Source: Oscillospiraceae bacterium (lineage in GTDB: Bacteria > Bacillota > Clostridia > Oscillospirales > UBA929). Taken from it: 64,000 bases of DNA. Position numbers and translations under genes: made by a program. Shown one piece after another: positions 36,193-57,267 of this stretch (position 1 is the first letter of the stretch; each line of letters starts with the position of its first letter). Location: contig JAVBPM010000027.1 of assembly GCA_031549605.1 (NCBI GenBank), forward strand, positions 1,338 through 65,337. Direction: 5' to 3'. A model generated the notes under the pieces. The model had not been told where the DNA came from. It did no database searches and saw only the letters and a program-made list of their open reading frames with translations.

Positions 36193-36564
36193 TCACGTCC
36201 ACAGGCCGACGTCAAGGCAGCTTTTTTTGAGATGCTCCAGCGCCTTTTTCTCCAGCCGTGACACATAGCTGCGGCTGATGTTCAGTTCCTTGGCCACCTC
36301 GCGCTGCGTGCGCGGCTTGACGTTGTCCAGCCCATAACGCAGCGTAACAATCTCCAGCTCGCGACCGCATAGCAGCTGCTTAACCAGCGCATTCAGCTTT
36401 TGCTCGCGGTCAGTTTCTTCCACGCGTGCCAAATTGAAATCCTCCACGCTGATGGTGTTGCCGATTGGCAGCATGCCGCTGTCGTCCTCACTGTTAAAGC
36501 TCTCCTCAAAGGAGGTCAACTTAGGCGCGTGCGCCTCCTTGCGAAACTGCATGCGGAACTCATT
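36193..36564 (-). CDS. sigK: sigma-K gene, 3' segment (spoIIIC-like; regions 3-4)
   Basis: From codon AAT (36564-36562): NEFRMQFRKEAH...ELEIVTLRYGL...TQREVAKELNISRSYVSRLEKKALEHL, a sigma-70 region 4.2 HTH. The upstream part of the track ORF is an out-of-frame read of the recombinase gene. Confidence 0.85.
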   Translation of the reverse strand, partial: NEFRMQFRKEAHAPKLTSFEESFNSEDDSGMLPIGNTISVEDFNLARVEETDREQKLNALVKQLLCGRELEIVTLRYGLDNVKPRTQREVAKELNISRSYVSRLEKKALEHLKKSCLDVGLWT

Positions 36565-36573
36565 TGCAACCCT
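36555..36573. other. left attachment junction of the sigK intervening element (core TTT 36563-36565)
   Basis: SigK similarity ends at codon 36564-62. Aligning the two junctions gives G-N-AAA-N-G on the minus strand, with AAA shared. Confidence 0.6.
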
Positions 36574-38296
36574 CTCGCTGCGGCTCGTTTTCGACCTGTT
36601 GGGCAGTCGCGCCAATCGCTTGCAGCTCGGGTAATTCAATGTCGCCTTCCTGTGAGCCGAACAGGTAGACATGGGCGTTTTCGCCATCCCAGATGACTTT
36701 GCGGATAAAGGTGCGCAGCGCCGAGCGTTTTTCCTCAACACTCATGGTCTCAAGAGCTCCGGCAAAGGTGGACAGCAGGTCGCGTAGCAGGTCAAATTCG
36801 ATGTCGGACAGCTCGTGTTCCTTGGTCAGACTTTCGAGTTCAGTCAGATGCTGGGTGGTGTCGCGGTTCTGCTGTTGGAGCTGTTCGATTTCGGCGAGAA
36901 TGCGGGTGCTAACGGCGTCGTTGTCGGTTTTAGACAGTGTTGTCACCAACGTATCAATTTGCTTTTCGGTTTCCTTGATGTCTTTACGTAGTGCCGTTAG
37001 CTGGTTATCATAATCGCTGGTGTCACCGAGTATGGTCTTCTTGGCCTGTTCAAGTTGTTGAATAAAGGTGGAGCTGTCAAAGGACAACTTTTTGATTTCT
37101 TCGCAGACCAGCTTATCCAGCTGATTGCCGTTTGGGTTCTTGATGTCGCAGTTTTGACAACGGCTTTTTTCCTTGGTCTCGCAGAGATAGCTGTAGACAA
37201 GTTCGCCATCCTTGTTGGCACGGGTGGTCAACTTGGGTCGCAGGAAGTCACCGCAACGGGCGCAGAACAACAGACCCGACAGCAGCGCCACATTACTCTT
37301 GGGCTTGCGGTAGGATTTGGATTTGTTTTGGTCAAGCAGCTTCTGCGCCGCAATCCAGTCGCTGCTGCTAATCATCGGCGTATGCTTGCCAACGGCAACA
37401 ATCCACTCAACTGCCGGACGTTCTTCATGTGATTTGCCTGTCGACTGCACCGTCTTGTTGTAGACCATCATACCATGCTTGCCGTCAAAGTCTTTATCGT
37501 CGGCATATATCTCCATCTGCTTGGCTTGAAAGTAGCTCAACGCTTTGACATCAGCGGTCAGATAGACAGGATTTTGCAGAATGCTCTTAATGGCAAAGCG
37601 TGTAATGCGTTTGCCATTCTTTGTTTTGCTATGGTTTTGCTCAAAGAAGGTTTCGGTTTTAGTCAGTGACTTGGTTTCAAGGAATTTGCCAAAAATGAGT
37701 TCGATAAGAGCTGCTTCCTCTTTCACAAGGTCGAGCTTGTATGAACGGCGTTTTTTATCGTCAATTGTAATGGTATCAACAGGCACACTTTGATAGCCGG
37801 TGGGCGCAACGCCACCCAGCCAGCGCCCTGTTTTGGCCAGCTGCACCATGTTGTCGCGGATACGCTCGGCAATGGTCTCCCGTTCAAGCTGTGAAAACAC
37901 AGAGGCAATCATAATCATGGCGCGGCCTGTTGGTGTGCTGGTGTCGAATTTCTCCTTGAGAGAATGAAACTTTACATCGTAACGGTCAAGGTCGGCCATC
38001 AGATGGGCAAAGTCACCGATGTTGCGGCTGATACGGTCAAGCCGGTAGCAGACCACGGCATCAATCTGATTGCTGTGAATGGCTTGGAGCAAGGCTTGAA
38101 ACTGCGGACGCTCGGTGTTCTTTCCCGAATACCCTTCGTCCTCGTAGACGACAACACTGTCAAATGCGTCAGCGGCTATGTTTTGCTTGATGTACTGTTG
38201 ACACATTTCAATCTGATTTTCAATGCTCTCGCCCTTGCCGGTAAATCGCGATTTACGCGAGTAGATAGCAATGTTCCGTTTTAGTTCTTTCGGCAT
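36560..38296 (-). CDS. large serine recombinase (SpoIVCA-like)
   Basis: Start at ATG 38296 (MPKELKRNIAIYSRKSRFTGKGESIENQ; catalytic Ser in YSRKS; VVCYRLDRISRN). Also a recombinase domain, the zinc ribbon CARCGDFL...CQNCD, and a coiled coil. The stop TGA (36562-36560) lies in sigK DNA. Confidence 0.9.
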   Translation of the reverse strand: MPKELKRNIAIYSRKSRFTGKGESIENQIEMCQQYIKQNIAADAFDSVVVYEDEGYSGKNTERPQFQALLQAIHSNQIDAVVCYRLDRISRNIGDFAHLMADLDRYDVKFHSLKEKFDTSTPTGRAMIMIASVFSQLERETIAERIRDNMVQLAKTGRWLGGVAPTGYQSVPVDTITIDDKKRRSYKLDLVKEEAALIELIFGKFLETKSLTKTETFFEQNHSKTKNGKRITRFAIKSILQNPVYLTADVKALSYFQAKQMEIYADDKDFDGKHGMMVYNKTVQSTGKSHEERPAVEWIVAVGKHTPMISSSDWIAAQKLLDQNKSKSYRKPKSNVALLSGLLFCARCGDFLRPKLTTRANKDGELVYSYLCETKEKSRCQNCDIKNPNGNQLDKLVCEEIKKLSFDSSTFIQQLEQAKKTILGDTSDYDNQLTALRKDIKETEKQIDTLVTTLSKTDNDAVSTRILAEIEQLQQQNRDTTQHLTELESLTKEHELSDIEFDLLRDLLSTFAGALETMSVEEKRSALRTFIRKVIWDGENAHVYLFGSQEGDIELPELQAIGATAQQVENEPQREGCK

Positions 38297-38389
38297 TTCA
38301 TTCACCCTTGTCCAATGTGATGTATTAAGCTTAACACTATCGTTACGGCTTGACAAGGGTATTATATAGGAAAACAAGCGAATTCGCAA

Positions 38390-38420
38390 AAAGAAAAACA
38401 GGGCTGCTTTTGCAACCCTG
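38390..38420 (-). terminator. probable terminator of the 70-aa gene
   Basis: Minus-strand hairpin cagggttgc-aaaa-gcagccctg (one G-U pair) followed by TTTTTCTTT. Confidence 0.45.
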
Positions 38421-38440
38421 CCCAGCTTGATAATAGAAAA

Positions 38441-38720: not shown

Positions 38721-39947
38721 TTAGTTCACAGGAAATGTAATACTGACACCATCAGGGAACGGAAAGACGGCTGTAGTGGTCATAAATTCATTTCGCAATA
38801 TGTAAAGGCCAACAACATATCCTGAGCCGTTGAAATCGCTTGCTAGCACAGCGACATAGGTGTGTGCTGGCCCCGCAACGTCCTCTTGGGAATAAAACGC
38901 ATACGAGTATAAGTCTTCTGCTTCACCGGGGTCATAATAATCTGGATACCCCCACTTCTGAGTGAGTTGATCATACGTCGTTGTGCCGTCTACACCATTG
39001 ACGGAGTACCTTTGCTTGTAAAGGCTATTAAGATAATCGACATAAACTGCTTGAATCATGCTGGCCCCTACTCTATAGGCAATGATTAGCTGTCGCCCAT
39101 CGTACGTACTGCAATAGTAGCCGTTGGTGCTGTCAATGGGTAGGTCGTCGACATCTTTTCGATTTAGGGTGTGAAATACCGACGCGTCATAAATGGAAAT
39201 GTCAAGAAAGTTGACATCGACAGTTGACAGTGCGCTTGGTAATGCCGAATCACTGTGGTCGGCATCGGTTCGAATACGAACATCGGGCGCAGCGGCGTTG
39301 TCGTCTGTACTTCCCAATGTCGCATAGTACTCGAAACCATCCTTATAACAAACCAGTGTGCCATCAGCAATCGTACAATCGCCTAAGTATTCTTTCAACT
39401 GGCCTAAGGTTGGTGAACGCATGTCTTTGAACAGCAAGGAGGACTCCACCCATACAGCTTCAGGCAAACTGTTGTAGTATTCGTCAGTGCCCTTGCTGTT
39501 TTTTCTAGAGAAGTAAATAAAGACAAATCCGGGATCAGTGTAGCCCGGTAAACTGTATACATTACAGCCAAGCTCGGAGTAATCGCAATCAACAAGCCCA
39601 TACGAATCGTAAATTTGTCGGTAGGACATCTCAAGCAGGTGTGGCCATGAGTCAAACTGAAGTCCTTTAGTTGCTGTGGGTGATAACGCGGTCGGTTGTC
39701 GAGACGTGGCACTCGAAGGTGTTGGCGACGGCAACGTCTGCCCCGTCTTGTCCGACAGAGTGAAAAACAGCAACACAGCAATAGCTATCACTATGACGGG
39801 AATAACCGCCAGAAGCAAAAAACGCCACCAAGGCCGCCTAGCAACGGCGACCTCGGTTTCGTCTGTCAGTTTTGTCATGCAGTAAAGGCAGAAGTTGGCT
39901 TCCTGCGGCAGTTCAGCGTTGCAATGAGGGCATTGTTTCATGTGCAT
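38721..39947 (-). CDS. zinc-ribbon membrane-anchored protein with a large extracytoplasmic domain
   Basis: ATG 39947, 6 nt after GAGGTG. N-terminal CPHCNAELPQEANFCLYC zinc ribbon, one TM helix (FLLLAVIPVIVIAIAVLLF), then ~330 aa with no recognisable motif. Confidence 0.55.
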   Translation of the reverse strand: MHMKQCPHCNAELPQEANFCLYCMTKLTDETEVAVARRPWWRFLLLAVIPVIVIAIAVLLFFTLSDKTGQTLPSPTPSSATSRQPTALSPTATKGLQFDSWPHLLEMSYRQIYDSYGLVDCDYSELGCNVYSLPGYTDPGFVFIYFSRKNSKGTDEYYNSLPEAVWVESSLLFKDMRSPTLGQLKEYLGDCTIADGTLVCYKDGFEYYATLGSTDDNAAAPDVRIRTDADHSDSALPSALSTVDVNFLDISIYDASVFHTLNRKDVDDLPIDSTNGYYCSTYDGRQLIIAYRVGASMIQAVYVDYLNSLYKQRYSVNGVDGTTTYDQLTQKWGYPDYYDPGEAEDLYSYAFYSQEDVAGPAHTYVAVLASDFNGSGYVVGLYILRNEFMTTTAVFPFPDGVSITFPVN

Positions 39948-40113
39948 GTGTATCACCTCATAGGGTGATTATACAACATTTGAAATGAAAAGGAAATGTA
40001 ATGTCAATGGCAGGACGTGAGTACTATGCAAAGACTGGTAGTGTAAAACAAAGTGTGCTTTTGCCTTTTCTGAGGAAGTGGTATAAACTTAGAAACCCTT
40101 AAAAGCGAAAGTA

Positions 40114-40506
40114 TTAGCTGAATAATAAATCTATAAGACCTGAAAGCTTGTCACCAGTCATGGAAATACCATTTACGTTAGCACCGGCTACTGTAATGTG
40201 ATTGTCGTTATGCAATGTGAATACCATTGTAAATTCATAATCGTTTTTGCTTTTGACGCCGGTAAATGCCACTTCATATTTTACTTGTTTTCCGGCGCTA
40301 GTGCTTTCCCCAAGAGACCAACTCGGGCCGCGTGTTATTTCGTTGCCGGTCAGATAACTATGCAGTCCTTCTGCTATCGGCTTGTTAGGATAGCCAGCGA
40401 GACAACCATTTTTTACACTCCCCACTGGGTCTTTTGTGCCACTGGAACAGGCCGTTGTGGCGATTAGGAGGCAGAGGAAAATCGCTATAATTCGTGAGGT
40501 TTTCAT
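40114..40506 (-). CDS. hypothetical lipoprotein
   Basis: MKTSRIIAIFLCLLIATTACSSG: signal peptide plus lipobox. Confidence 0.55.
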   Translation of the reverse strand: MKTSRIIAIFLCLLIATTACSSGTKDPVGSVKNGCLAGYPNKPIAEGLHSYLTGNEITRGPSWSLGESTSAGKQVKYEVAFTGVKSKNDYEFTMVFTLHNDNHITVAGANVNGISMTGDKLSGLIDLLFS

Positions 40507-40568
40507 AAAATTATACTCCTTTTTACAAGTGCTTACAATACTTCCACATAGGATTTATCGAAGCGCAT

Positions 40569-40784
40569 TCATTTGCGATTGCCCTTTTTGACTTTTACGC
40601 CCATCATAACGAAATAAATGGTAACGAACAGCAGAATAACGCCAACAATGGGAACGACAATGGACAAGGTATCGAAAAGTGAAGCCCTAGCTTTTTCGTC
40701 AGCCATAAGTCCCGGCGAATATTGACTGGCACTTTCTATGACACCCCAGACTGCGCCTTTGCTGTATGAATTGTGCTCTGGCAA
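40569..40784 (-). CDS. small membrane protein (71 aa)
   Basis: C-terminal TM helix IVVPIVGVILLFVTIYFVMMGV followed by a basic tail. Confidence 0.4.
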   Translation of the reverse strand: MPEHNSYSKGAVWGVIESASQYSPGLMADEKARASLFDTLSIVVPIVGVILLFVTIYFVMMGVKVKKGNRK

Positions 40785-40889
40785 TATGTAAAAAAGTCAG
40801 GTCAGTAATGACGCCAGAGAAAATGTCCCTGACACAATGGAAAAACGAAGAAACTTGTTCATTCTTTTACACTCTTTTCTGTCATGTAA

Positions 40890-41195
40890 TTACGATCGGT
40901 TGCTTTTCAGACCCAAATAGGCTAGTACGCCTGCACCAAACAGACCCAGCGCACGAATGGTCATGGCGATGCCACCATAGATACCGCCCAGCTCGGTGTA
41001 GTATGCCTCCTCTAAGGTCTTGCCGCCGACTGATTCAATCAGAGAAATCTCTTCGCCGTGGCTGGCTATCTGCCCTGCTGCTACCATGCAGAGCACCAAA
41101 ACAATAACGGCTAGAACGCAAAATATGATGAGCTTAAGCGGATTGTTTTGTTTGGCCGGTGGGAATGGGGTGGGCGCAAATGTTGGTTGGTTCAT
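40890..41195 (-). CDS. small membrane protein (101 aa)
   Basis: Two predicted TM helices. AAAGGAG RBS. Confidence 0.45.
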   Translation of the reverse strand: MNQPTFAPTPFPPAKQNNPLKLIIFCVLAVIVLVLCMVAAGQIASHGEEISLIESVGGKTLEEAYYTELGGIYGGIAMTIRALGLFGAGVLAYLGLKSNRS

Positions 41196-41223
41196 AATGA
41201 TGACTCCTTTTCTGAAATGTGTT

Positions 41224-41283
41224 TAGTGTCGTAACGACGTTTTGTGCCATAATGGGCTGGTATTGAGGCGTGTATTGGGGTTG
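41224..41283. repeat. 60-bp direct repeat, copy 1 (intergenic)
   Basis: 58/60 identical to 42748-42807, compared base by base. Confidence 0.9.
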
Positions 41284-41285
41284 CT

Positions 41286-41843
41286 TCATTGTTTTATGTA
41301 CTTGCTTATGTACTCAACAATCTGATTACGGCTGTTTTTAGGTTTTGATGTAAATGGGTTTGGGCTGTTGCATGCAAATTTGTATCTTTCGCCGTATCGC
41401 GTAGCTATTTCGAGGCCCGCGGCGGCAAGTGCCTTTGAGAAAGTAACATACGTAATGTCTTGTAGTGGTATGGCTAAATCAGTATTATTGCTTGCCAAAG
41501 ATAATAGCCCTTTGCCGACTGCATTTATGGCGGTGCTTTTTTCCCAAAGTAGACGCATATTTGTCAGAATTATATACCCGCTGTCTCGAGTGCCCTTGTA
41601 AATCGTACACAGCTGCTTGATAATAACGGCTTCACCCTGATAGAGAGGCGTCTTAATATTGGGCGCAATATAGCTGGCAGGCTGCTGCTGTTGAGTCGTT
41701 GCGCTAGCTTGTTCTGTGCTGTTTGCTGGAGCAGCTTGTTGTTGAATCGCTGTAGTATTGGGTTGCCTAATCTTTGTTCCACATTCTATGCAAAAATTAG
41801 ATGTGTCATTTAGTTGTGTTCCACATTGTTGACAAAATGGCAT
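41286..41843 (-). CDS. zinc-ribbon protein with a PH/GRAM-like C-terminal region
   Basis: MPFCQQCGTQLNDTSNFCIECGTKI zinc ribbon, a Q/A/T-rich linker, then a ~110-aa soluble domain. Confidence 0.5.
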   Translation of the reverse strand: MPFCQQCGTQLNDTSNFCIECGTKIRQPNTTAIQQQAAPANSTEQASATTQQQQPASYIAPNIKTPLYQGEAVIIKQLCTIYKGTRDSGYIILTNMRLLWEKSTAINAVGKGLLSLASNNTDLAIPLQDITYVTFSKALAAAGLEIATRYGERYKFACNSPNPFTSKPKNSRNQIVEYISKYIKQ

Positions 41844-41916
41844 ACATAACTATCCTTTCGATATATTAATCGGGTTTAACAACTGTCTATGATATTATGA
41901 GATGAGAATTGCAGAG

Positions 41917-42327
41917 TTAGTTATAAAGGCTTGTGCCGCAGCTTTGGCAAAATAATGAGCCTTTGTCATTTCTGACGCCGCATTGTGTGCAGTAAACAAA
42001 TGGATTGGTATTATTGTTTAAGGGCAAAATCGTGGGGGCACTTGAGGCGAAGGTGTGGTTTTTTCTGCTTCGTCGGGAAAACGCCATAATCAAAAGTACA
42101 ATGCTTGAGATTACGAAGAAGATGCAGAGCACATAAAACGCATTATAAAGAAAAATAATAGTATCCTCTTTGGAGGTGTCACCGAAAGCCTCAGCCAATG
42201 CATAGGTAGATCCAGAGACACGTTGTGAATATGCGGCAGCATAGCCAAAGAAAGACCCAATTGCCAAAAGAAAGGATATGCCTGACCACATGAATAGATT
42301 CTTTGGTTTTCTTCTCATATATGACAC
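41917..42327 (-). CDS. membrane protein with a C-terminal zinc ribbon
   Basis: Two TM helices, then YCTQCGVRNDKGSLFCQSCGTSL. Confidence 0.45.
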   Translation of the reverse strand: MSYMRRKPKNLFMWSGISFLLAIGSFFGYAAAYSQRVSGSTYALAEAFGDTSKEDTIIFLYNAFYVLCIFFVISSIVLLIMAFSRRSRKNHTFASSAPTILPLNNNTNPFVYCTQCGVRNDKGSLFCQSCGTSLYN

Positions 42328-42369
42328 CTGCTTGTACAGTGGAAATTAAGTATATGTTGTAGTGCTGAG

Positions 42370-42939
42370 CTAACGCACAGCTTGCCGTGCAACAAACCCT
42401 TGCTCTATTTGCAGGAAAGTCGCTTGGTTGCTCATTGCATAGTTGCGGACGGTAAAATCATAAATGGAGCCGGCGACTGCGATGATGCCGCCAAAGATGA
42501 GGTTGTATAACAACGTGGCAACCAAAGGCCCGACCGGCGTGTATTTAGCGACAATGCCCACTGGTCGTTGTAGGATTTCCGCCGAATAGGCTCTGTCCTT
42601 GCCGGAAAGAACAATGTTGACCACGCCAATGGCAATGATAATGCCTCCGCTAATCTCGTCTACCGACATTAAGAGAATGCCGCCTATTGCCAACTGCAGG
42701 ATGCCAATAATGAGCCATATCGTAGCCGATGTTTGAAGTTTTCCCGATAGTGTCGTAACGACGTTTTGTGACATAACGGGCTGGTATTGAGGCGTGTATT
42801 GGGGTTGGTACGGCTGCTGATACGGCTGCTGATACAGGGGAACGGGGGGTGGAGCGGTGGCGCTTTGTGATGCAACGCATTGTTGGCAGAGCGTGCCGTT
42901 TGAATTGAGCGATGTACCGCAGCTTGTACAGAATGGCAT
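42370..42939 (-). CDS. zinc-ribbon membrane protein
   Basis: ATG 42939 (AAAGGA 8 nt upstream). MPFCTSCGTSLNSNGTLCQQC, a PQY-rich linker, and three or four TM helices. Confidence 0.5.
   Translation of the reverse strand: MPFCTSCGTSLNSNGTLCQQCVASQSATAPPPVPLYQQPYQQPYQPQYTPQYQPVMSQNVVTTLSGKLQTSATIWLIIGILQLAIGGILLMSVDEISGGIIIAIGVVNIVLSGKDRAYSAEILQRPVGIVAKYTPVGPLVATLLYNLIFGGIIAVAGSIYDFTVRNYAMSNQATFLQIEQGFVARQAVR
42748..42807. repeat. 60-bp direct repeat, copy 2 (inside the CDS)
   Basis: Pairs with 41224-41283. Here it encodes ...PQYTPQYQPVMSQNVVTTL. Confidence 0.9.
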
Positions 42940-43076
42940 GGTGTTCATCCTTTCTACATATAATCTATTTGTCAAACTGTATCATATATAATTCCTATAG
43001 TCAATATTTACTTCTTTTAATTCATTACTCGACATGACGAAATCCGATATAATCAAACCTCAAGGGGGTGCAGGTG

Positions 43077-43482: not shown

Positions 43483-44181
43483 CTATAATGCTCGACGGAG
43501 CGAGAGTGCGTCTGAGAAGCGTTCTTCGGGGCTGGGTTGTACGCAGCGACGGATAATTTTTCCCAGCCGTCCGCGCGCACGCTGCTTGCTGTAATGCTCA
43601 CCGGTTAACATGACATTCATCAGCATGCCCAGCGCATATATGTCCGTCCGCTCGTCGGACTCCTTAAAACCGTATTGTTCCGGCGCAGCATATCCGGCCG
43701 TGCCAAGTAGCTGTGTATCCTTGCTTTGCGCTGGCTTCACCAGTCGACAGGCGTTGAAGTCAATCAGCTTAGTCATGCCGTTACAATCAACCATTACGTT
43801 CTCAGGTTTAATGTCTCGGTGGACGATACCCAGCGAGTGCAGCGCGGACAATGCATCGCAAAGCTGCTTGGACACCTGTCGTGTGCCCCGCTCGGTGTAG
43901 TGGCCCGTCTCCAGCACTTGGGCAACGGTACAGCCGTCTATGTATTCCTCCAGCACGGTAACGATGTTTTCACGCTGCACAACTTCGTAGATGCGCGGCA
44001 GGTGCGGGTGTGTGACGTTCAGTAAATGCCGATAGACTTCAGCGCTGCCCGTGAAGGTGCGCTTGACGATTGGCCAATGCAGCGTCTTGTGGCGAAGTAG
44101 CAGCACTTGAGACGAAGGCGTCTGCTTCAATGCCGTCACAAGCGTATATTGTTTATCTAAGGCGTCATTTAGCCAGTCCAT
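43483..44181 (-). CDS. stand-alone Ser/Thr protein kinase domain protein
   Basis: Start ATG 44181. Hanks motifs HRDIKPENVMV, DFN (DFG-like) and GTAGYAAPE. No sensor or TM region. Confidence 0.8.
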   Translation of the reverse strand: MDWLNDALDKQYTLVTALKQTPSSQVLLLRHKTLHWPIVKRTFTGSAEVYRHLLNVTHPHLPRIYEVVQRENIVTVLEEYIDGCTVAQVLETGHYTERGTRQVSKQLCDALSALHSLGIVHRDIKPENVMVDCNGMTKLIDFNACRLVKPAQSKDTQLLGTAGYAAPEQYGFKESDERTDIYALGMLMNVMLTGEHYSKQRARGRLGKIIRRCVQPSPEERFSDALSLRRAL

Positions 44182-44236
44182 CTTTTCACCCACTGTCGAT
44201 TCATGGTATACTGACATCATACTAGGAGGCGATGTA

Positions 44237-44659
44237 ATGGTCAAGAAGTCAACCGACGATTTGCTGGCAGAGTTGCAGGGGCAAAAACCGCTGGAGGCGT
44301 ACATCGCCGACAACCAGGACGCTTTCTATTCGAAGCAGCTGGCGCAAGTGCTGTGTCAGTTGGTGGAGGAAAAGCAGACAACCAAATATGAGGTCATCAA
44401 ACGTGCTGAGCTGACCGAGGTGTATGGCTATCAAATCTTTGCCGGGAAGCGGCTACCCTCGCGGGATAAGTTGCTCTGTTTGTGCATAGGGCTGGGTCTG
44501 TCAGTCGACGAAACCCAGCAACTGCTGAAGCAGGTGGGCATGGCGCCGTTGTATGCAAAGCTGAAGCGGGATAGTATTATTCTGTATGAGGTTGGCCACG
44601 GGCAGAATGTGGTGGCGATTAATGAGCGGTTGTATCTTGAAAATGAATTAACGTTATAA
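44237..44659 (+). CDS. HTH-domain protein (XRE-like)
   Basis: 140 aa. The segment KRAELTEVYGYQIFAGKRLPSRDKLLCLCIGLGLSVDETQQLL matches a common clostridial HTH family. Divergent from the kinase gene. Confidence 0.55.
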   Translation: MVKKSTDDLLAELQGQKPLEAYIADNQDAFYSKQLAQVLCQLVEEKQTTKYEVIKRAELTEVYGYQIFAGKRLPSRDKLLCLCIGLGLSVDETQQLLKQVGMAPLYAKLKRDSIILYEVGHGQNVVAINERLYLENELTL

Positions 44660-47780: not shown

Positions 47781-47795
47781 CTTATAAAAGAGAGG

Positions 47796-49475: not shown

Positions 49476-49477
49476 AT

Positions 49478-52400
49478 TTACACACCAAAGGGTATATAAA
49501 AATCGGTAAAAGTATCGCGAACCGAGTATAGAATATCTTTACCTACAAATAACAATCTACCTTTTTTAACTGATTCATAGTTTTTCTTAAATACGTCTAT
49601 ATTTCGCTGGCAAGAGTAGAAGCAAGATTTGTTTTTATCACACTTGAAATCACAAGTCCCATTACTTCCGTAGTATTTAATTTCACTTAGGAACTGATAA
49701 ACTTCACTTTCCAATCCATATTCGCATAGAAAAATAGCATAATTTGTAAGCAAAATAATATTGTTATAAGTAAAATCAAGTGCTCCAAGAAAAAATTGAT
49801 CACACTGTCTCATATGATGAAGCATGGTCTGAAAGTATTTATAAATTGTTTCTGATGATGAACCGTCGCTGGCAGCGATTATTGCACGAAGGCAATATAA
49901 TGACGGCATCATTTTAGCTATCCCGTTTTGTATACTGTCGGATATTCCAGCGTCTATGTGCTTTTTTGCTTGTTCTCTTTCCTCAGTACTGTTTCCAATA
50001 TAATAAATCGCAGCTAAGAGGTAATGACTACGGATAATAGCTATCGGGTACTCTACTTCCATGGCTAATTCAAGAAGTCTTTGCCCTTCATTTTTAAAAT
50101 AATTTAGTTTATCAAATTTAGTAGAATCATTAACTATGTTTGCTGTTAAAATACCAAGATCATTGTGACAACTAATTCTTGGTGATACATCTGATGAAAG
50201 AAGCGCTTTTGCTTCATTCATCAAGGCAAGAGCCTCTTGAAAATCTCTATAAAATCTTATTTTAGCTGATAATATTTTACTTAATGTCAATAACTTTGCA
50301 TCTTGCAACCGTTCAGCAATCTTGTATGAAAGCTGATTATAAAGCATCGCTAATTCCTTATGGTTTTCTTGTATATACACGCTAGAGATCCGGTCAAAAA
50401 GATCAAAACGTGTTTCATCATTAAAAAGAGCTTCATCTTTACGCTCTTGTGCAAGAAGTTCCAACAATAGTTTTTTTGCTTGTGATATACGGTCTGATTG
50501 CATAAACAGATGTGCTTGCATTTGCATAGCTGTTAGATGTAATGGCATATCATTTGCATGATGTTCTTTTATTATTTCTAGTATCTTCTCTATGACAATA
50601 CCACCACGGGCAACAGATAAGCTGTGTAAAGCGATATACATACTAGCTAATAATGTGTTTCTTTGAAGATTCAAGTTATTATTTTTAGAAGCAATTTCAT
50701 AAATAGTCTCGTATGTTTCAAAATATTTAGGAGTTAAATTGCATGAAGAAATATTTTTTATGTTGCTAATTTCAGTAATGGCTATTTGTAATAAACTCTC
50801 GCTTCTGTGAAAGTCGCCAACATGAAAATAAATTACTGCTTTTTGTAAATCAGAATACTGCTCTAATAATTCATTGCAAGAAACAAGGAAATCAGCTACT
50901 TTCTCAATTGTATTTTTAGATTTAAGAATTTCTCTTATAAACAAGAAAATATTTTCATGATCAAAAGTGATGTTATCATTATGAGTTATCTTGAGAAAGT
51001 GCCTTTTGTATAAAATATTAATGGTTTCAAAATTCTCATCCCCAAAATACAAATTATAAATTCGTTTGGGAGCTTCAATTCCATATAAACCGAGTAAAAG
51101 CAAAAATAATTGCAAATCTGTTCCGTTTGTCAAATCTGCAATGTTATCAAATCTTGCTCTTATTAAGTCCTGAACAGAAGAAGGGATGTATAATTTCTTC
51201 GCAAAAGTTGTTACATTAGTTATTCCCACTGCATTTCTGTTCATCAAATACATTAATTTTGTCTCCAACATATATTCTATAAATTGGCACACATAAAATG
51301 GATTGTTTTCAGATGCTTTATGAATCTTATTTATTACATATTCAGGTGCTTCGATAATTATTGACCGAATCATATTTTTACACTCAACATCAGTTAACTT
51401 TTTAATTTTATAGTTATTAATATTTTCGTTTTTCTCGTTTTCTAGCCATGATAAATAAGTAAAATAACTCTGATTGTAAACGCTATAGTCGTCCCGACCT
51501 GCAGTAATAATAATAAAAGGAGTATAGAAATTACTTGTCGAGAATTTCTTCAACAATGAAAAAAGGCTTTTATCTGCATTATGTATATCCTCAATAACAA
51601 TAGCATATCGGTTAAAATGCATTGGAATATTCGTTAAATCTATTAGAGCTCTTAATTTGTATTGCGGGATGCTATCAGCAATATAAGAATTAAGCAGTTC
51701 TTCGGTAGATTTTGTCTCATGTTCCGTGCATATAAAGTGAAATATCTTAATTCCACTTTGAGAAATTTTTTTACTCGCTTCATCTAATATTCTTGTTTTT
51801 CCAATTCCGGCTTCTCCACGAAGGTTAATCATGTGGAAATTAGTATTATTTTGCCCCCTTGAAACAATACTACTTATTATTTCTTTGTGATAAGTGCCTA
51901 CAAGAGGTGTTTCAAAATCATAATCAACAAAACGACCATTGATTATAATTTTTTTTAAATTTTCATTCAGCATAACATCAACTAAAATATCATCAATACC
52001 ATCAAAATATTCTTTTGTTACTCCGATACATTTGCAAATGCTATTGCCAGCATCTAGAAAAACTTCAAACTGTGTTTCAGATAATAGCCAGTTTCGATCA
52101 GATTTAAGTTGGAATTTGCATATTTGGGGATTTTCCGAATAATTGCGAAAACGCAAATATAATTCTAAATATGGCAAACCATTTCTCTTGCCGTGATTAA
52201 GTTGATAATCAGCCGATAGTTCAAAATGTTCTAGAGGCAAAGCATAATTTCCGAAAAGGGCATTATGAAAATCTAAAAACTTTGCTAAAATAAATTGGTC
52301 TACTAGAAAAAATTCATATCCATTTTCTATTGCATTATGGTTGGCTTCGTAATGCGAAAATGGAACGATGGTTTGATTGGTAATTAAAATGAAATAATCA

Positions 52401-52744
52401 ATTCCGCTATGATTTGCAAGAAGTATATTCTTTGAAAACTTGTCAAGACCAATTTTATTATTATTTGAGCTTTTAAATTCTATGTAAATGCAAATACTGC
52501 TTTTACCCTTTAAATCAAACTTTTTGCCAAAAAGAGAAAAAGGTACTATTGATCTAATAATTAAATCCTTACCACTATCCCTTGTGCGAGGGGTTCGTTC
52601 AATTTTTAATTCTTTTTCATAATATTCAGCTAACGAATACTCAATCACTGATGACACATGCTCTTCAAATTCAAAGCCAGACATATTTAGGTCCCACTTT
52701 TGACTATTAATATTCGGCGTAATATAATTAACGCTACCTAGCAT
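49478..52744 (-). CDS. Mrr-like nuclease / STAND P-loop NTPase / TPR-like repeat protein (Avs-like architecture)
   Basis: GAGGGAG RBS. Residues ~20-160 carry a PD-(D/E)xK pattern (GFEFEEHV, DSGKDLII, IYIEFKS, GIDYFILITN). Walker A GEAGIGKT (residues 310-317) and Walker B AIVIEDIH. About 650 aa of helical repeats, then a C-terminal Cys cluster. Confidence 0.8.
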   Translation of the reverse strand: MLGSVNYITPNINSQKWDLNMSGFEFEEHVSSVIEYSLAEYYEKELKIERTPRTRDSGKDLIIRSIVPFSLFGKKFDLKGKSSICIYIEFKSSNNNKIGLDKFSKNILLANHSGIDYFILITNQTIVPFSHYEANHNAIENGYEFFLVDQFILAKFLDFHNALFGNYALPLEHFELSADYQLNHGKRNGLPYLELYLRFRNYSENPQICKFQLKSDRNWLLSETQFEVFLDAGNSICKCIGVTKEYFDGIDDILVDVMLNENLKKIIINGRFVDYDFETPLVGTYHKEIISSIVSRGQNNTNFHMINLRGEAGIGKTRILDEASKKISQSGIKIFHFICTEHETKSTEELLNSYIADSIPQYKLRALIDLTNIPMHFNRYAIVIEDIHNADKSLFSLLKKFSTSNFYTPFIIITAGRDDYSVYNQSYFTYLSWLENEKNENINNYKIKKLTDVECKNMIRSIIIEAPEYVINKIHKASENNPFYVCQFIEYMLETKLMYLMNRNAVGITNVTTFAKKLYIPSSVQDLIRARFDNIADLTNGTDLQLFLLLLGLYGIEAPKRIYNLYFGDENFETINILYKRHFLKITHNDNITFDHENIFLFIREILKSKNTIEKVADFLVSCNELLEQYSDLQKAVIYFHVGDFHRSESLLQIAITEISNIKNISSCNLTPKYFETYETIYEIASKNNNLNLQRNTLLASMYIALHSLSVARGGIVIEKILEIIKEHHANDMPLHLTAMQMQAHLFMQSDRISQAKKLLLELLAQERKDEALFNDETRFDLFDRISSVYIQENHKELAMLYNQLSYKIAERLQDAKLLTLSKILSAKIRFYRDFQEALALMNEAKALLSSDVSPRISCHNDLGILTANIVNDSTKFDKLNYFKNEGQRLLELAMEVEYPIAIIRSHYLLAAIYYIGNSTEEREQAKKHIDAGISDSIQNGIAKMMPSLYCLRAIIAASDGSSSETIYKYFQTMLHHMRQCDQFFLGALDFTYNNIILLTNYAIFLCEYGLESEVYQFLSEIKYYGSNGTCDFKCDKNKSCFYSCQRNIDVFKKNYESVKKGRLLFVGKDILYSVRDTFTDFYIPFGV

Positions 52745-52818
52745 ATAACTCCCTCTTTTTACATTAGTTGCAATAAACAGTTATCCATTATTTACTGTTT
52801 TTTCAATGATAAACAATA

Positions 52819-52876
52819 GATAATTACAAATTATTTGACCTGTAAACAATAGATAATCTGGTATTATCCTGCATTG
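52819..52876 (-). repeat. 58-bp inverted repeat, right copy (IR-R)
   Basis: Exact reverse complement of 47723-47780. Lies 75 bp upstream of the 1088-aa gene start and 44 bp from the recombinase stop. Confidence 0.95.
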
Positions 52877-52920
52877 GCTTAAACGTGAATAGTGACCCCA
52901 TGAATGAGGCCACTACTATT

Positions 52921-53841
52921 TTAAATAACTATTCGATTTCTAGGATGCTTTGTGTCTAATATCTCTTTTTGCTTTTTTAAACTCACATGTGTATATATCT
53001 GTGTCGTGGTAATCGAGCTATGTCCCAGAATTTGTTGTATATACCTGATATCAACACCTTCATCCAGTAATAGAGTTGCAAAAGAATGTCTAAACATATG
53101 TGGGGTTATATTAAGTGCAATTCCAGCTTGATTCGCATACTTTCGTATCATAAACCGTACAGATTGCTCAGATAGCCTGTTATTACAGCGGTTTAAATAA
53201 AATTGCTTTGCATTATTAACGTCTTTTTCTTCTCGAACTATACCATAATTATCTAACGCAGATAAAACCTCATCATTGCCAATTCTGATAATTCTCTCTT
53301 TCGCACCCTTTCCATAGATACAGGCGGTTTTTTCGTGGAAATTAATATCGCAACAATTTAATGAGCACAGCTCGGAAACACGCATGCCCGTTGCAAAGAG
53401 CAGTTCAAGAACGGCAATGTTACGAATTGTCATTCTCTTTTTATAATCTGTAGAACTGATTGACAATTCTGTATATGCGCATCTAAGGATGGCCTCAACA
53501 TCGGTCAATGATATAGTTCGTGGTAAAATCTTAGGCTCCTGAAACTTAGTTCTAACTTTAGCAAAATGGTCTTCATCAATTATATTTTCAAACTGTAAAT
53601 AATTAAAAAAAGCCTTTAGCGAAGCAATTTTGCGTTTAGCGCTTTTAGGCTTGTATTTTGTATGTAATGTAACAATATATGCATTAAGCACTTCTTTCAT
53701 TGAGCTGCTTTCGGACAGTTTTGCGTGCTGCCTAAATTGTTCAAGATCAATTCGGTATGCTTTAATTGTGGGCGCACTCAACTTCTTTTGATTTGCGCAA
53801 AAAGAAAGATAAGGACGGATTAACGATTCAGTAATTATCAC
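52921..53841 (-). CDS. tyrosine site-specific recombinase (XerC/XerD-like)
   Basis: GTG start after GGGGG. Core-binding N-terminal domain (APTIKAYRIDLEQF). Catalytic ATGMRVSEL, HMFRHSFAT and LGHSSITTTQIYTHV (R..HxxR..Y). Confidence 0.85.
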   Translation of the reverse strand: MIITESLIRPYLSFCANQKKLSAPTIKAYRIDLEQFRQHAKLSESSSMKEVLNAYIVTLHTKYKPKSAKRKIASLKAFFNYLQFENIIDEDHFAKVRTKFQEPKILPRTISLTDVEAILRCAYTELSISSTDYKKRMTIRNIAVLELLFATGMRVSELCSLNCCDINFHEKTACIYGKGAKERIIRIGNDEVLSALDNYGIVREEKDVNNAKQFYLNRCNNRLSEQSVRFMIRKYANQAGIALNITPHMFRHSFATLLLDEGVDIRYIQQILGHSSITTTQIYTHVSLKKQKEILDTKHPRNRIVI

Positions 53842-54004: not shown

Positions 54005-54072
54005 AGACATGTTAAATATAAAAAATGCAGAAATTATTACGTTATCTTCTACGTAAAAACGGGAGGTGTCAC

Positions 54073-55374
54073 TTGAAACGCATATTAAGCGACCAGCTAT
54101 TGTCTTGGAAAACGCAGAGCGACCGAAAACCGCTTATTCTAAAAGGCGTACGTCAGTGCGGTAAAACGTATTTGCTCAAGGAGTTTGGTGAGGCGCACTA
54201 CGACGACGTTGCCTACTTTAATTTTGAGGGCAACGACGCCTTGCAAGCGCGGTTTGATGTTGATTTGGATGTTGACCGAATCATTGCTGAACTGGGTATC
54301 CTGCGACGCAAAGCCATCGAGCCGGATAAAACGCTGATTATCTTTGATGAGATTCAGTTTTGTAACCGTGCTTTGACGGCGTTGAAATACTTCTGCGAGA
54401 ACGCGCCACAGTTTCATATTGTCTGTGCCGGGTCTCTTTTGGGCGTGGCGCTTAGTAAGCCGTTGTCATTTCCCGTGGGTAAGGTTGATTTTCTCACATT
54501 GCGGCCGATGAACTTCTATGAGTTTTTGCTGGCAAACGGCGAAGATTTACTGTGTGATTATTTGAACAAGCTAACCACCGGCGAAAAGGTGTCGGCATTG
54601 TTTGCCGAAAAGCTGGAGCAGTTGCTTCGGACGTATTATATCACTGGCGGTATGCCGGAGGCCGTGGATATATGGCTAAAGACGCGTGACATCGGCAAGC
54701 TGGAGGAGGTGCAGCAACGCATCCTTGACAGTTATGAGTTGGACTTTGCTAAGCACGCACCGAGTAAAGACTTCCCGAAACTGTCGGCGATTTGGCGGTC
54801 AATTCCTGAACAATTGGCCAAAGAGAACAGCAAGTTTATTTTCAGTCAGGTCAAGAAAGGCCTCCGCGCCAAAGACTTAGAGGATGCCTTGGAGTGGCTT
54901 CTGAGTGCCGGACTGGCCTTTAAGGTTATGAAAATTGAAAAGCCATTTTTGCCGCTGTCTGCCTATGCTGACGCGACGTTCTTTAAGCTCTACATGTCTG
55001 ACGTGGGCTTGCTTCGAAAGATGTCAAAGCTACCTGCAGAGGCGTTACTGGCGAAGAGTGAGCTATACACTGAGTTCAAGGGCGCATTGGCTGAGAATTA
55101 TGTGCTGACTGAGTTGGTCAACTTGCAGGGCGACACGCCGTATTACTGGAAATCGGGAAATATAGCCGAGGTCGATTTTGTCGTTCAGCAGGACATGGAC
55201 ATCATTCCTATTGAGGTCAAATCCGAGCGGAACGAACGCGCGCGGTCGCTGTCGGAGTATCGGAAAAAGTATAACCCACGTGTGGCGGTGATTACGTCGA
55301 TGAGTAATGTGTCTGGCGGCGAGGTTAGGAATGTGCCGTTGTATATGTTGTGGAGGTTGGTGGCGTATGTATAG
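54073..55374 (+). CDS. AAA-family ATPase with DUF4143-type C-terminal domain
   Basis: TTG 54073, 6 nt after GGGAGG, gives the family-typical N-terminus (L)KRILSDQLLSWKTQSDRKPLILKGVRQCGKTY (Walker A). Walker B LIIFDEIQ. Confidence 0.7.
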   Translation: MKRILSDQLLSWKTQSDRKPLILKGVRQCGKTYLLKEFGEAHYDDVAYFNFEGNDALQARFDVDLDVDRIIAELGILRRKAIEPDKTLIIFDEIQFCNRALTALKYFCENAPQFHIVCAGSLLGVALSKPLSFPVGKVDFLTLRPMNFYEFLLANGEDLLCDYLNKLTTGEKVSALFAEKLEQLLRTYYITGGMPEAVDIWLKTRDIGKLEEVQQRILDSYELDFAKHAPSKDFPKLSAIWRSIPEQLAKENSKFIFSQVKKGLRAKDLEDALEWLLSAGLAFKVMKIEKPFLPLSAYADATFFKLYMSDVGLLRKMSKLPAEALLAKSELYTEFKGALAENYVLTELVNLQGDTPYYWKSGNIAEVDFVVQQDMDIIPIEVKSERNERARSLSEYRKKYNPRVAVITSMSNVSGGEVRNVPLYMLWRLVAYV

Positions 55375-55449: not shown

Positions 55450-56235
55450 GTGATACGATACAGTAAATGCAAAGAAGCAAGGAAAACAATCGAAGATGTA
55501 TATAATCATCCAGAGAAATATTTAATTATCCATTATTCATGTGAGAGCTTTATGGACAAGCCTGATGGCGGGACACCAAGGATAACCTCAATTGCGGTAA
55601 GATTTTGTAGCACTTCACAGACAAAGTCTTTTTCAATACATAAAATTGCAGAGCAAAAGCATATGGATTGGAATAAACTTCAAGATAATTACGATATTTG
55701 TGAAAGAGAAATGTTGAAGGATTTCTTTAAATTTGTGAGGGAACACAAAACTTTTGTATGGTTACATTGGAACATGAGAGATGAAAATTACGGGTTTTAT
55801 GCCCTTGAAAACAGGTTTAAGGTTCTTGGTGGAACACCAATTTGTGTTGAGGACAACAGTAAAATAGATATCGCAAGATTATTTGTTAAACGATACGGGA
55901 AATACTATATTCAAAATCCGAAAATTGTCAATTTAGTTCAAAAGAACGGTATGTCACACATGGATTTCTTAACAGGACAAGAAGAGGCAGACGCCTTCGT
56001 AAATAGAGAATACATCAAACTTCACAAATCAACATTGAGAAAAGTTGACCTGTTTTCAAATATGCTGATTGCATCTGCAGAGAAGACACTAAAAACCAAT
56101 GCAAAATGGAAAGATATGTATGGTGTTTCCCCTCAGGGGTTGTACCAGGCTGCAAAAGATAATATATGGTATAATATAGCAGTAGGTGTTGTTGTTTTGC
56201 TTCTTGGTGCTATGCTGGGGCAATTATATAACTGA
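55450..56235 (+). CDS. hypothetical protein with a C-terminal TM anchor (261 aa)
   Basis: GTG start after GGGGGA. Soluble ~225-aa domain with no motif I recognise. C-terminal helix YNIAVGVVVLLLGAMLGQLY. Confidence 0.45.
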   Translation: MIRYSKCKEARKTIEDVYNHPEKYLIIHYSCESFMDKPDGGTPRITSIAVRFCSTSQTKSFSIHKIAEQKHMDWNKLQDNYDICEREMLKDFFKFVREHKTFVWLHWNMRDENYGFYALENRFKVLGGTPICVEDNSKIDIARLFVKRYGKYYIQNPKIVNLVQKNGMSHMDFLTGQEEADAFVNREYIKLHKSTLRKVDLFSNMLIASAEKTLKTNAKWKDMYGVSPQGLYQAAKDNIWYNIAVGVVVLLLGAMLGQLYN

Positions 56236-56326
56236 TTTATTACGCATACGCCCATTTTGTTGCTTTCACCTTAAATGAAAAACCCAAATAAGCCAGTTAT
56301 AACACGCTACGTCGAACACAGGCCGT

Positions 56327-56818
56327 TTATATCTCGAGATACTGCCTACTTATCCCAACATAGTTCTCCTTAAGTAATGTAGTGAATCCTGTCTCCCACC
56401 TTTTCACTGTGCCATGATGCACGCCCAAAACTCTGGCCAACGCAGGTCGCGACAGCCTATTAGCCTTCCGCAATTCTCGAATCTGCTCAGCTTGTCCGTC
56501 GTACAGAAACCTATGGTACGAATCGAGTAAATCAACCACAGCCACCCCAAACAACGCCGCAGCAACCCCCAGCTTGTCCAACGGATACACCGAAATACCA
56601 CGCTCCCAACGTAGATAGGTGCCGGTGTCGATACCAATAGCCGCTGCCACATCTACCTGCCTCAACCTACACTGCCTCCGATAATAACGAAGCTTGTCCG
56701 CCACGGACGCATCAGCCTCCGGCACAACCACGACCTCCACAGCGCCGCTGTATTGTTCCTGTTTGATGACATGGACATACAGCGGCGCATATTTTGTTTT
56801 GCCCTTAACCGTACACAT
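56327..56818 (-). CDS. XRE-family regulator with two HTH domains
   Basis: Two HTH_3-like motifs (RLRQVDVAAAIGIDTGTYLRWERG; RLSRPALARVLGVHHGTVKRWETG). The start is uncertain: ATG 56818 or 56911, neither with a clear SD. Confidence 0.55.
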   Translation of the reverse strand: MCTVKGKTKYAPLYVHVIKQEQYSGAVEVVVVPEADASVADKLRYYRRQCRLRQVDVAAAIGIDTGTYLRWERGISVYPLDKLGVAAALFGVAVVDLLDSYHRFLYDGQAEQIRELRKANRLSRPALARVLGVHHGTVKRWETGFTTLLKENYVGISRQYLEI

Positions 56819-56917
56819 ATAAATAGCGAGCGTATTGCTCACCGCCCACGCCAACCGCCACGGCGATAAATGGGGTGCGTGGTGCGCTGTGTCGCGTTCC
56901 AAAGTTCCCATTTTGAT

Positions 56918-56938
56918 AGTATTGCTTTTTCAATACAT
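56918..56938. other. right attachment junction of the sigK intervening element (core TTT 56927-56929)
   Basis: SigK similarity ends after codon GAA (56931-56929). The local dyad gtattg-cttttt-caatac spans the junction. Confidence 0.6.
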
Positions 56939-57267
56939 CGGCAGGCGTAGGTGGCGAAGCGGGCTCCTTTTTCGGGGTCAAAGGTGAGCACTGCCTTGAT
57001 GAGGCCAATGTTGCCGCTGGACAGCAGGTCCTCGTAGTCGCTTTCGCTGGCGTAGAATTTGCGTGCAATGTGCGTGACCAGCCGCATGTTGTGTTCGATA
57101 AGCGCGTCCTGCGCGCGTTTGTCGCCCTGCTTATAGCGCAGCCACAGCGCCGACTCCTCCTCGCCGGTCAATCGTCGCGGGAAAGAGCCACCACGGCTGC
57201 TCAGTCGCAGGCTGAGGTACAAACTGTGCACCATGAGGGCCAAAGTAATGGAAATTATAGGAAACAC
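56929..57267 (-). CDS. sigK: sigma-K gene, 5' segment (spoIVCB-like; pro-sequence + regions 1.2-2.4)
   Basis: Hydrophobic pro-sequence (M)FPIISITLALMVHSLYLSL, then GDKRAQDALIEHNMRLVTHIARKF and SGNIGLIKAVLTFDPEKGARFATYACRCIE. Similarity stops at E113. The start codon (GTG 57267) is uncertain. Confidence 0.85.

Follow-up and report, generated by a model that had tools for sequence, protein, structure and literature searches.

How can a bacterium whose sigK gene lies in two pieces some 20 kb apart still encode sigma-K, and what happens at the break points to the genes of the DNA that separates the pieces? This question is raised by a stretch of 64,000 nucleotides (nt) from an Oscillospiraceae bacterium (contig JAVBPM010000027.1 of GenBank assembly GCA_031549605.1, positions 1,338 to 65,337 of the forward strand), which we refer to as the window and whose positions are counted from its first letter. 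A preliminary description of the window had stated that sigK is split there by a skin-like intervening element of ~20.4 kb, and our analysis confirms this observation at the level of the sequence. We estimate at roughly 80% the probability that the intervening DNA is a skin-type sigK-intervening element in the chromosome of an Oscillospiraceae-like member of the Clostridia, inserted, and expected to be excised, by its own recombinase. The split sigK is, as such, one more member, from a poorly studied lineage of gut Clostridia, of a well-known class. What we did not find described in the literature searched is an architecture that is family-wide, in which the attachment site of the element, attP, lies within a reading frame.

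The two sigK segments together make up a complete gene. The 5′ segment (57267 to 56929, minus strand) encodes codons 1–113, that is, a hydrophobic pro-sequence followed by sigma regions 1.2–2.4, with ...FATYACRCIE as the last residues; beyond these the frame continues for 29 unrelated codons before it reaches a stop. The 3′ segment (36564 to 36193, minus strand) encodes codons 114–236 and the stop codon, comprising regions 3–4.2, and its translation reads NEFRMQFRK...SRSYVSRLEKKAL... (the same stretch is also given as ISRSYVSRLEKKALEHLKK). At the two breaks the DNA reads ...TGTATTGAAAAAGCAATAC... and ...GGGTTGCAAATGAGTTC..., and joining the halves within the A-run (AAA) that they share yields a 711-nt open reading frame (ORF) of 236 codons, free of frameshifts, that reads CRCIE-NEFRM across the joint, just as the preliminary description had it. 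The predicted restored attB junction on the chromosome is ...CGATGTATTGAAAATGAGTTCCGC... (also written ...GCCTGCCGATGTATTGAAAATGAGTTCCGCATGCAG...), and the element separates codon 113 of pro-sigma-K from codon 114 (CIE|NE).

The joined product aligned from end to end with nine intact SigK orthologues and was gap-free at CIE|NE; 64 columns are invariant among the 10 aligned sequences (the joined protein included), and these are found on both sides of the joint. The closest orthologue, P0001, shares CIENEFRM exactly and shows an identity of 77% by BLASTP (78% in the alignment); another intact orthologue, P0003, is 63% identical. When the joined sigK was used to search 5.8 billion proteins, intact matches of 229–235 amino acids (aa) were recovered. 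Matches with a source name were SigK proteins of Intestinimonas, Pseudoflavonifractor, Oscillibacter, and Dysosmobacter (46–50% identity over >90% of the length), and the N-terminal hydrophobic pro-sequence of the joined protein aligns with theirs; no intact orthologue of more than 79% identity was shown by the protein searches. Moreover, an intact sigK on metagenome contig L001 is collinear at the DNA level, matching the window from 57246 to 56927 and then, without a break, from 36564 to 36230. Two SigK models ranked first among the NCBIfam matches of the joined protein, one of which (NF004471) was covered from profile position 9 to 227 of 235. Within the window the joined protein matched only the two sigK pieces and rpoD, so that no second sigK was found there. 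Note that an independent Logan assembly (L002, with 99–100% protein identity) has the junction at the end of the 5′ segment as well, so that the split is not an assembly artefact.

The 5′ end of sigK shows two further features. The start codon is uncertain, since the GTG at 57267 overlaps a GGAGG Shine-Dalgarno-like motif (GGGAGGTG; 57258–57275, minus strand), and the ATG of the orthologue aligns with ATA/ATT three codons past the annotated GTG of pro-sigma-K. Upstream of the gene (57280–57320, minus strand, and approximately 120–170 in L001), both the window and the intact L001 locus contain CATAGGACAAAAA followed, ~9 nt on, by CATAAACT or AATAGTAA. The arrangement, ATA-N17-CATAAACT (ATA-N17-CATA...), was seen by eye, the automatic alignment of the upstream regions being poor, and presumably resembles the promoters used by the mother-cell sigma factors sigE and sigK.

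The DNA between the two halves measures 20,364 bp, in agreement with the ~20.4 kb given before. Its G+C content is 30–52%, compared to ~58% in the flanks, a drop that points to a foreign origin. The flanks themselves carry ordinary chromosomal genes, with a dGTPase gene, dnaG, rpoD, ttcA, and a Na/Pi symporter gene on one side, genes for a short-chain dehydrogenase/reductase (SDR) and a VanW-like protein on the other, and secA, aspS, and helD further out. (Note that gene order differs between relatives: positions 1039–1301 of L001, downstream of its intact sigK, are 85% identical to the dGTPase gene of the window (63684–63946), which lies upstream of sigK.)

The putative attachment sites at the two ends have the layout expected of skin elements, in that imperfect inverted repeats flank a short common core, here the A-run. 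In attL (56900 to 56945, minus strand) the sigK side, ...CGATGTATTGAA, meets the element side, AAAGCAATACTATCAAAATGG, with the crossover placed within the A-run at 56930 to 56926; the element arm of attL, GCAATACTATC, recurs in contig L026, which carries the attP form of a related element. In attR (36545 to 36590, minus strand) the element arm, GAGCCGCAGCGAGAGGGTTGCA, encodes the C-terminus of the recombinase, EPQREGCK, and is followed by the sigK side, AATGAGTTCCGCATG. The attP reconstructed from these arms, ...GGGTTGCAAAAGCAATAC..., shows TTGC/GCAA symmetry, and the predicted junction of the excised circle is ...GAGGGTTGCAAAAGCAATACTATC... (also written ...GAGCCGCAGCGAGAGGGTTGCAAAAGCAATACTATCAAAATGG...). 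The element-side arm of attR is conserved among relatives as GAGCC(G/A)....G.G.GGATAGC(A/G)AA, or, across ~60 loci, as GAGCC..GG(A/T)T(A/T)GC(A/G)AA.

A SpoIVCA-like large serine recombinase had been noticed at the element's edge, and the corresponding gene (36560 to 38296, minus strand; 578 aa) lies directly upstream of the sigK 3′ fragment. Its product has the three domains of a large serine recombinase, namely Resolvase (PF00239, 4.3e-38), Recombinase (PF07508, 1.9e-17), and Zn_ribbon_recom (PF13408, 1.1e-8), and its serine motif, YSRKS, is invariant in an alignment of 15 relatives. The best NCBIfam matches are CcrB and XisF-type large serine recombinases, and relatives in the PDB include TP901-1 integrase, SprA, and other integrases. 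Integrases of cultured phages are at most 40% identical to the window recombinase. Metagenomic proteins that match it number in the thousands; the best 120 listed are 53–60% identical, and none of more than 60% identity was shown by the protein searches.

We surveyed 79 loci from species-representative genomes that encode 50–60% identical recombinases, fetched by means of the 15-sequence alignment. In ~70 of the 79 the recombinase gene is directly followed by the sigK 3′ half, which begins exactly at the N of CIE|NE in 65; in 16 of these loci the sigK 5′ half, ending ...CIE, is visible 2.6–10.1 kb upstream. The hosts include Oscillospiraceae, Lachnospiraceae (Lacrimispora), Christensenellaceae, Defluviitaleaceae, and others. 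The recombinase clade is, from these sequences, linked family-wide to one codon of sigK. (In two IMG/VR prophage contigs with 41–49% identical recombinases, L091 (~11645–11677) and L094 (~11579–11610), the insertion is at this very codon of sigK but oriented the opposite way; there the recombinase gene converges on the sigK 5′ half, beside a Bacillus-like ...ATYAARCIE/D end, and has a stop of its own ~30 nt before the junction.)

We propose that the large serine recombinase encoded by the 20,364-bp foreign segment would have carried out the insertion, attP recombining with attB at an AA core, and that the same recombinase, probably together with a recombination directionality factor (RDF), would recombine attL with attR, releasing a circle and leaving sigK intact with its 236 codons. 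If Bacillus subtilis and Clostridioides difficile, with their SpoIVCA/Skr and CD1231/CD1234 systems, are a guide, excision would occur in the terminally differentiating mother cell, so that the element would stay in the germ line, and pro-sigma-K would then be made and processed. Reading the insert as a skin-like element with an in-frame join thus held up in every structural test, and its mother-cell-specific timing is what we infer from those analogous systems.

A sigK interrupted in this way might instead be dead, with a mobile element sitting in the gene of a non-sporulating lineage and never being excised in development. Flavonifractor and Oscillibacter are described as non-spore-forming despite many SpoIVCA-like recombinases, as far as the available text of a survey of such elements goes (Galperin et al., bioRxiv 10.1101/2022.02.25.481979), and the flanking ORFs that were scanned yielded no further recognisable sporulation gene. 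Several of our own results also weigh against a functional, excisable sigK. The joined protein scored below the curated SigK cutoffs (199.8 versus 252 bits for NF004471 and 189.3 versus 298.65 for TIGR02846), with SigE models not far behind the SigK models at 178.7 bits. The ratio of nonsynonymous to synonymous substitution rates (dN/dS) relative to L001 is low (5′ half, 0.025; 3′ half, 0.145), which makes both halves look functional; note, however, that dS relative to L001, the only close orthologue, is saturated, so that the low ratios mostly reflect the history before insertion and stay compatible with recent inactivation. Furthermore, no RDF was identified, a 70-aa ORF upstream of the recombinase gene having no homologue in ~160 related loci. 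Against a dead gene, both halves are of full length, with neither frameshift nor stop and with all 64 invariant columns kept, and the recombinase, like both att arms, is intact and fits the family consensus. Moreover, dozens of species belonging to several families have retained this split, which is hard to explain without recurrent reconstitution of the gene. We therefore consider a dead sigK very unlikely and return to an element that is expected to be excised.

What happens to the genes of the element at its two ends was the second part of our question. The recombinase ends in ...EPQREGCK, and its stop codon, a TGA at 36562–36560, consists of bases of sigK, the T of AAT and the GA of GAG. 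Among 65 analysable loci (window included), the recombinase stop is exactly this sigK-derived TGA in 47. The recombinase reads 20–119 nt further into sigK in the same frame in another 13, mostly where the Asn codon is AAC, and in 4 it is in a different frame and stops 10–13 nt into sigK. Only one recombinase stops inside the element; the other 64 of the 65 have no stop there.

At the opposite end, an ORF of 199 codons plus stop (56327 to 56926, minus strand) is open from the first base past the junction; it lies directly downstream of the 5′ sigK segment (sigK′), points the same way, and is preceded in frame by the TGA of sigK's ATT-GAA. Its product, which we call X-HTH, has a beta domain (X) followed by two XRE-type helix-turn-helix (HTH) motifs. 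The N-terminal ~75 aa are conserved (F..W+L..S.N.Y.L...Y.P.YIH.F+F), and an AlphaFold model (mean predicted local distance difference test score 80.7) contains three beta strands and then ten helices across two helix-turn-helix domains. In a fold search only the HTH part matched the PDB (the XRE-type repressors DdrO, SinR, and P22 c2), and the N-terminal beta domain of the model gave no match. Homologues of X-HTH occupy the same position in loci L005, L012, L054, L075, and L079, where the frame is in every case free of stops as far back as the junction and the spacing from the junction to ADKLRYY is 225–246 nt among the X-HTH loci. For L075 and L079, the one unsaturated pair, dN/dS was 0.149 for the X region, close to the value of 0.104 for the HTH part, so that the X region is translated.

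Joining the two ends of the element in silico reconstructs an attP that is crossed by a single reading frame. In the window this frame has 625 open codons before the junction and 200 after it, corresponding to ~778 aa when counted from the ATG of the recombinase, and the respective numbers are 596 and 199 for L005, 578 and 203 for L075, 577 and 209 for L079, and 583 and 210 for L054. Note that in L054 both sides of attP have shifted jointly into another frame such that continuity is kept. On inspection, the frame looks continuous in L012 as well. The attP state is also found in natural sequences. P0222 is a called 773-aa gene on an 11.2-kb Logan contig (L082) with no sigK on either side. In L026, a 2.8-kb contig, the 3′ end of the recombinase gene is 93% identical to the integrated Flavonifractor loci L020, L022, and L024 up to ...GATAGCAAATG, beyond which those three loci enter sigK and L026 continues with CAATACTATCG... 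and X-HTH. Two further fusions came to light when 1.8 billion cluster representatives were searched exhaustively with a profile, namely P0359 (760 aa) and P0413 (823 aa), whose recombinases are 40% and 50% identical, respectively, to that of the window. Taken together, the precise in-frame join, the intact recombinase, the family-conserved att arms, and the reciprocal completion of two ORFs by attL × attR recombination can all be read directly from the sequences; attP lies inside a reading frame, and excision would fuse the recombinase and X-HTH in frame into ~778 codons.

In some relatives, sigK may supply a start codon for X-HTH in addition to a stop codon for the recombinase. In L075, L079, P0244–P0246, and P0255, X-HTH starts at an ATG or GTG within the Arg-Cys codons of sigK (MYRKS or MHRKS; ...CG ATG TAT AGA AAA AGC). 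The sigK of the window has ATT rather than ATA at this point, which accounts for the TGA found there in place of an X-HTH start.

Continuity of the frame across attP could nevertheless be a by-product, with att arms that happen to be coding, a recombinase that tolerates any tail, and an X-HTH that is always made as a separate protein. A number of findings favour this alternative over a meaningful fusion. Most X-HTH homologues are called as separate proteins of 190–212 aa, and most of the other listed matches to the X-HTH profile are stand-alone proteins of ~110–230 aa, so that the fusion may be incidental. X-HTH is absent from 12 of 17 elements in which both junctions are visible, and the read-through tail in those 12 measures 1–46 codons. 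The X domain of the window is the most divergent copy, with part of the FRF..PH..TEA..F..PDP segment replaced and modelled at low confidence. Gene callers, moreover, place starts near or just upstream of the junction, as with the MYRKS starts from sigK's CG-ATG-T in relatives, and in the window a GGAGG lies 11 nt before an internal GTG at VADKLRYY. A mere by-product is harder to reconcile with the continuity seen in 6 of 6 integrated loci examined and 4 of 4 natural attP-form sequences, with recombinases of down to 40% identity, with the joint change of frame on both sides in L054, with purifying selection on the X region right from the junction, and with the 64 of 65 recombinases that lack a stop of their own inside the element. 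We regard the by-product explanation as a serious possibility, to which we give somewhat less than an even chance.

If, on the other hand, the fusion is meaningful, integration would split two genes, sigK and a recombinase-X-HTH gene, and a single recombination event would assemble both reciprocally, sigK on the chromosome and the ~778-aa fusion on the circle. Of the element's genes, X-HTH alone lies directly behind the sigK promoter, which makes it, by position, a candidate for an RDF and for a factor linking excision to the transcription of sigK; driven by transcription of sigK′, X-HTH may trigger or lock excision. The mother cell, in transcribing the broken sigK, would then itself make the trigger for excision. 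The function that we would ascribe to the fusion is a speculation from artificial C-terminal integrase-RDF fusions, which drive attL × attR recombination: resembling these, the fusion made after excision could lock the excised state and make excision irreversible. This combined scheme is tentative, and we ourselves think it rather doubtful.

The region upstream of the recombinase gene contains a sigma-70-type promoter-like site, TTGCGA-17-TATAAT (38389–38361, minus strand; 10 of 12 matches), just after a terminator-like hairpin (38423–38396; the two together span 38361 to 38423, minus strand). Within the hairpin, AGGGTTGCAAAAGCA (38405–38419) repeats the predicted attP core exactly over 15 nt, where ~0.16 chance matches would be expected when 2 mismatches are allowed. 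The intact attP core is predicted to occur only after excision, and this copy near the recombinase gene is already present. It could be a recombinase operator, a relic attP, or something else; we rejected it as a family feature, since of 57 loci only the window has it (none of the 56 related loci does). In Lacrimispora-type loci, small out-of-frame ORFs overlap the 5′ end of the recombinase gene, with a 31-codon version in the window, and these may merely reflect the conserved N-terminus of the recombinase.

The preliminary description had seen the novelty of the element in its cargo, given as a defence-type island, a kinase, and a primase. This is weak as a claim of novelty, as published skin elements already share no gene other than the recombinase according to the available part of the survey (10.1101/2022.02.25.481979), and unusual cargo is thus the rule. 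The kinase and the primase proved correct: a Ser/Thr protein kinase gene with a Pkinase domain, by domain scan, lies at 43483 to 44181 (minus strand) and a P4-family primase/helicase gene at 45706 to 47133 (plus strand; D5_N and DUF5906 domains, TIGR01613 above cutoff). The defence label depends on matches at the level of candidates and is plausible but unproven. PADLOC returned one candidate defence family, PDC-S01 (E 1.4e-173), for an ATPase with AAA_14 and DUF4143 domains (54025 to 55374, plus strand); the kinase matched PD-T4-6 and MADS6 through its generic kinase fold, and PADLOC gave no match for a carbamoyltransferase, the primase, or a 1088-aa protein, the last of which had no NCBIfam or PDB match either.

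The carbamoyltransferase (NodU-like; 47796–49475, plus strand) and the 1088-aa protein (49478–52744, minus strand; weak Mrr_cat and AAA_16 matches) are encoded by the two genes of a segment (47719 to 52880) that is bounded by 62-nt inverted repeats (47719–47780 and 52819–52880, 98% complementary). The two genes point inward, each preceded by one of the repeats as the same 62-nt leader, and the segment, with a G+C content of ~30–35%, is the lowest in G+C of the element. A gene for a XerC/XerD-like tyrosine recombinase (52921 to 53841, minus strand) adjoins it, and the arrangement is probably that of an invertible, phase-variable cassette. (A nested insertion of a low-G+C island was also considered; the flanking direct repeats sought for it were not found, the repeats present being inverted.) The remaining cargo comprises a gene for a 261-aa protein (55450 to 56235, plus strand; phrog_8766, E 2.4e-87, Pfam weak match only), two XRE/HTH regulator genes (44237–44659, plus strand, and 44725–45453, minus strand; domain and PHROGs scans), and a cluster of genes for small zinc-ribbon and membrane proteins with one lipoprotein-like ORF (38721 to 42975, minus strand; ORF list, Pfam, and PHROGs). 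This cluster contains a 60-nt direct repeat (41224–41283 and 42748–42807, 97% identical), one copy of which is inside a 201-aa ORF and the other just downstream of a 185-aa ORF, which suggests a recent partial duplication.

This cargo raises the alternative that the element is mainly a self-mobile integrative replicon, akin to a satellite or plasmid, for which sigK is a safe attB and whose own XRE regulators trigger excision, any coupling to sporulation being incidental. A P4-type primase/helicase accompanied by three XRE/HTH regulators would suit such a replicon, as would the sigma-70-type promoter-like site upstream of the recombinase gene. No virion, packaging, or lysis genes were found (for the ten cargo proteins scanned, PHROGs gave primase and regulator families only and nothing structural, and Pfam gave none either). 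Infectious phages that integrate in sigK are known (PMC3442830, PMC13141910), and attP-form relatives exist as free contigs. One of these, L082 (Logan SRR25229948), encodes a rolling-circle Rep (REP_ORF2-G2P), a Dam-type methyltransferase, and an HTH-Peptidase_M78 (ImmA/IrrE-like) protein, and some members of the sigK-targeting family may live as free replicons. (X-HTH had no match in cultured phage genomes and plasmids, and two IMG/VR contigs hold X-HTH without an adjoining recombinase gene or sigK.) Mobility of this kind is, however, compatible with developmental excision, since SPbeta does both as far as the accessible text of one report describes it (PMC4191935). Many members of the family, moreover, are 2.6–4 kb long with little besides the recombinase gene, so that the family does not owe its place in sigK to mobility functions, and the cargo proteins scanned included none recognised as serving transfer or packaging. 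An essentially self-mobile replicon is thus unlikely in our judgement, and a skin-type element expected to be excised from sigK remains the explanation that we prefer.

The feature that sets this clade apart is that attP lies within the recombinase's own reading frame, such that the host gene provides the stop codon in the integrated state and excision would restore a longer, HTH-bearing form. Were the truncated and fused forms to differ in directionality, the result would be a natural switch of serine-integrase direction that depends on the state of the DNA, which would bear on the irreversibility of developmental excision and on the design of integrase tools. For annotation, a recombinase gene in this clade that has no stop before AATGA marks a split sigK.

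How does the element compare with known systems? Skin elements of 15 Firmicutes measure 2.6–48 kb, and spoIVCA occupies their edge in every case, most often immediately upstream of the 3′ fragment. In size, edge recombinase, and position next to the 3′ fragment the element of the window fits this catalogue exactly, in so far as its available text extends; that text makes no mention of a sigK-supplied recombinase stop, an attP-spanning ORF, or an X-HTH module (10.1101/2022.02.25.481979). Elements of the skin class are known from B. subtilis, C. difficile, Clostridium tetani, and the Clostridium perfringens phage phiS63. The B. subtilis element (spoIVCB - skin - spoIIIC, with SpoIVCA and Skr) resembles that of the window in its split sigK, edge large serine recombinase, precise excision (predicted here), and pro-sequence. 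The insertion point is apparently also the same, at ...ARCIE|NE..., which we take to be the position of the B. subtilis element, and the Bacillus-like ends in L091 and L094 are cut at this point too. Unlike the B. subtilis element, which is a 48-kb defective prophage, the 20.4-kb element of the window has no virion genes that we recognised. Moreover, the integrase gene of B. subtilis is oriented opposite to sigK (PMC3442830), whereas the window recombinase gene is codirectional with sigK and abuts its 3′ half; the RDF Skr overlaps the 5′ end of spoIVCA (PMC6957869), and the window has no clear equivalent; and spoIVCA has a sigE-dependent promoter, in contrast to the sigma-70-type promoter-like site of the window.

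The C. difficile element skinCd (with the recombinase CD1231 and the RDF CD1234) likewise intervenes in sigK without being a functional phage. A sigA-type promoter drives its recombinase constitutively, and it is a separate factor, the RDF, that confers cell-type specificity (PMC5025042). By analogy, the same regulatory logic may apply to the window, whose promoter-like site resembles the constitutive CD1231 promoter. The two differ in that skinCd, like skinCt and phiS63, is inserted near nt 427 of sigK (PMC3442830) rather than at nt 339–342; in that sigma-K of C. difficile lacks the pro-sequence that sigma-K of the window has; and in that CD1234 is a small sigE-controlled protein, whereas the candidate in the window is the 199-codon X-HTH ORF behind the sigK promoter.

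For the reading frame across attP, the nearest analogues are the SSV-type ("suicidal") tyrosine integrases of archaea, in which, according to the available portions of two reports, the site lies within the integrase ORF, integration splits that ORF, and excision rebuilds it (PMC7253208, PMC8371274). Those enzymes are tyrosine recombinases from archaea, and integration destroys the catalytic protein, whereas the 578-aa part in the window keeps the canonical serine-recombinase domains and only the C-terminal X-HTH is removed. Engineered integrase-RDF fusions (phiC31, Bxb1, and SprA-SprB; PMC12286644), like the fusion predicted here, carry at the integrase's C-terminus an accessory protein, which in their case controls directionality, and the structure of an SprA(YokA)-YotN fusion is available (PDB 9dxd). 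The engineered fusions are artificial and have a proven RDF as partner; the fusion of the window would be natural, would depend on excision, and has in X-HTH a candidate for the same role.

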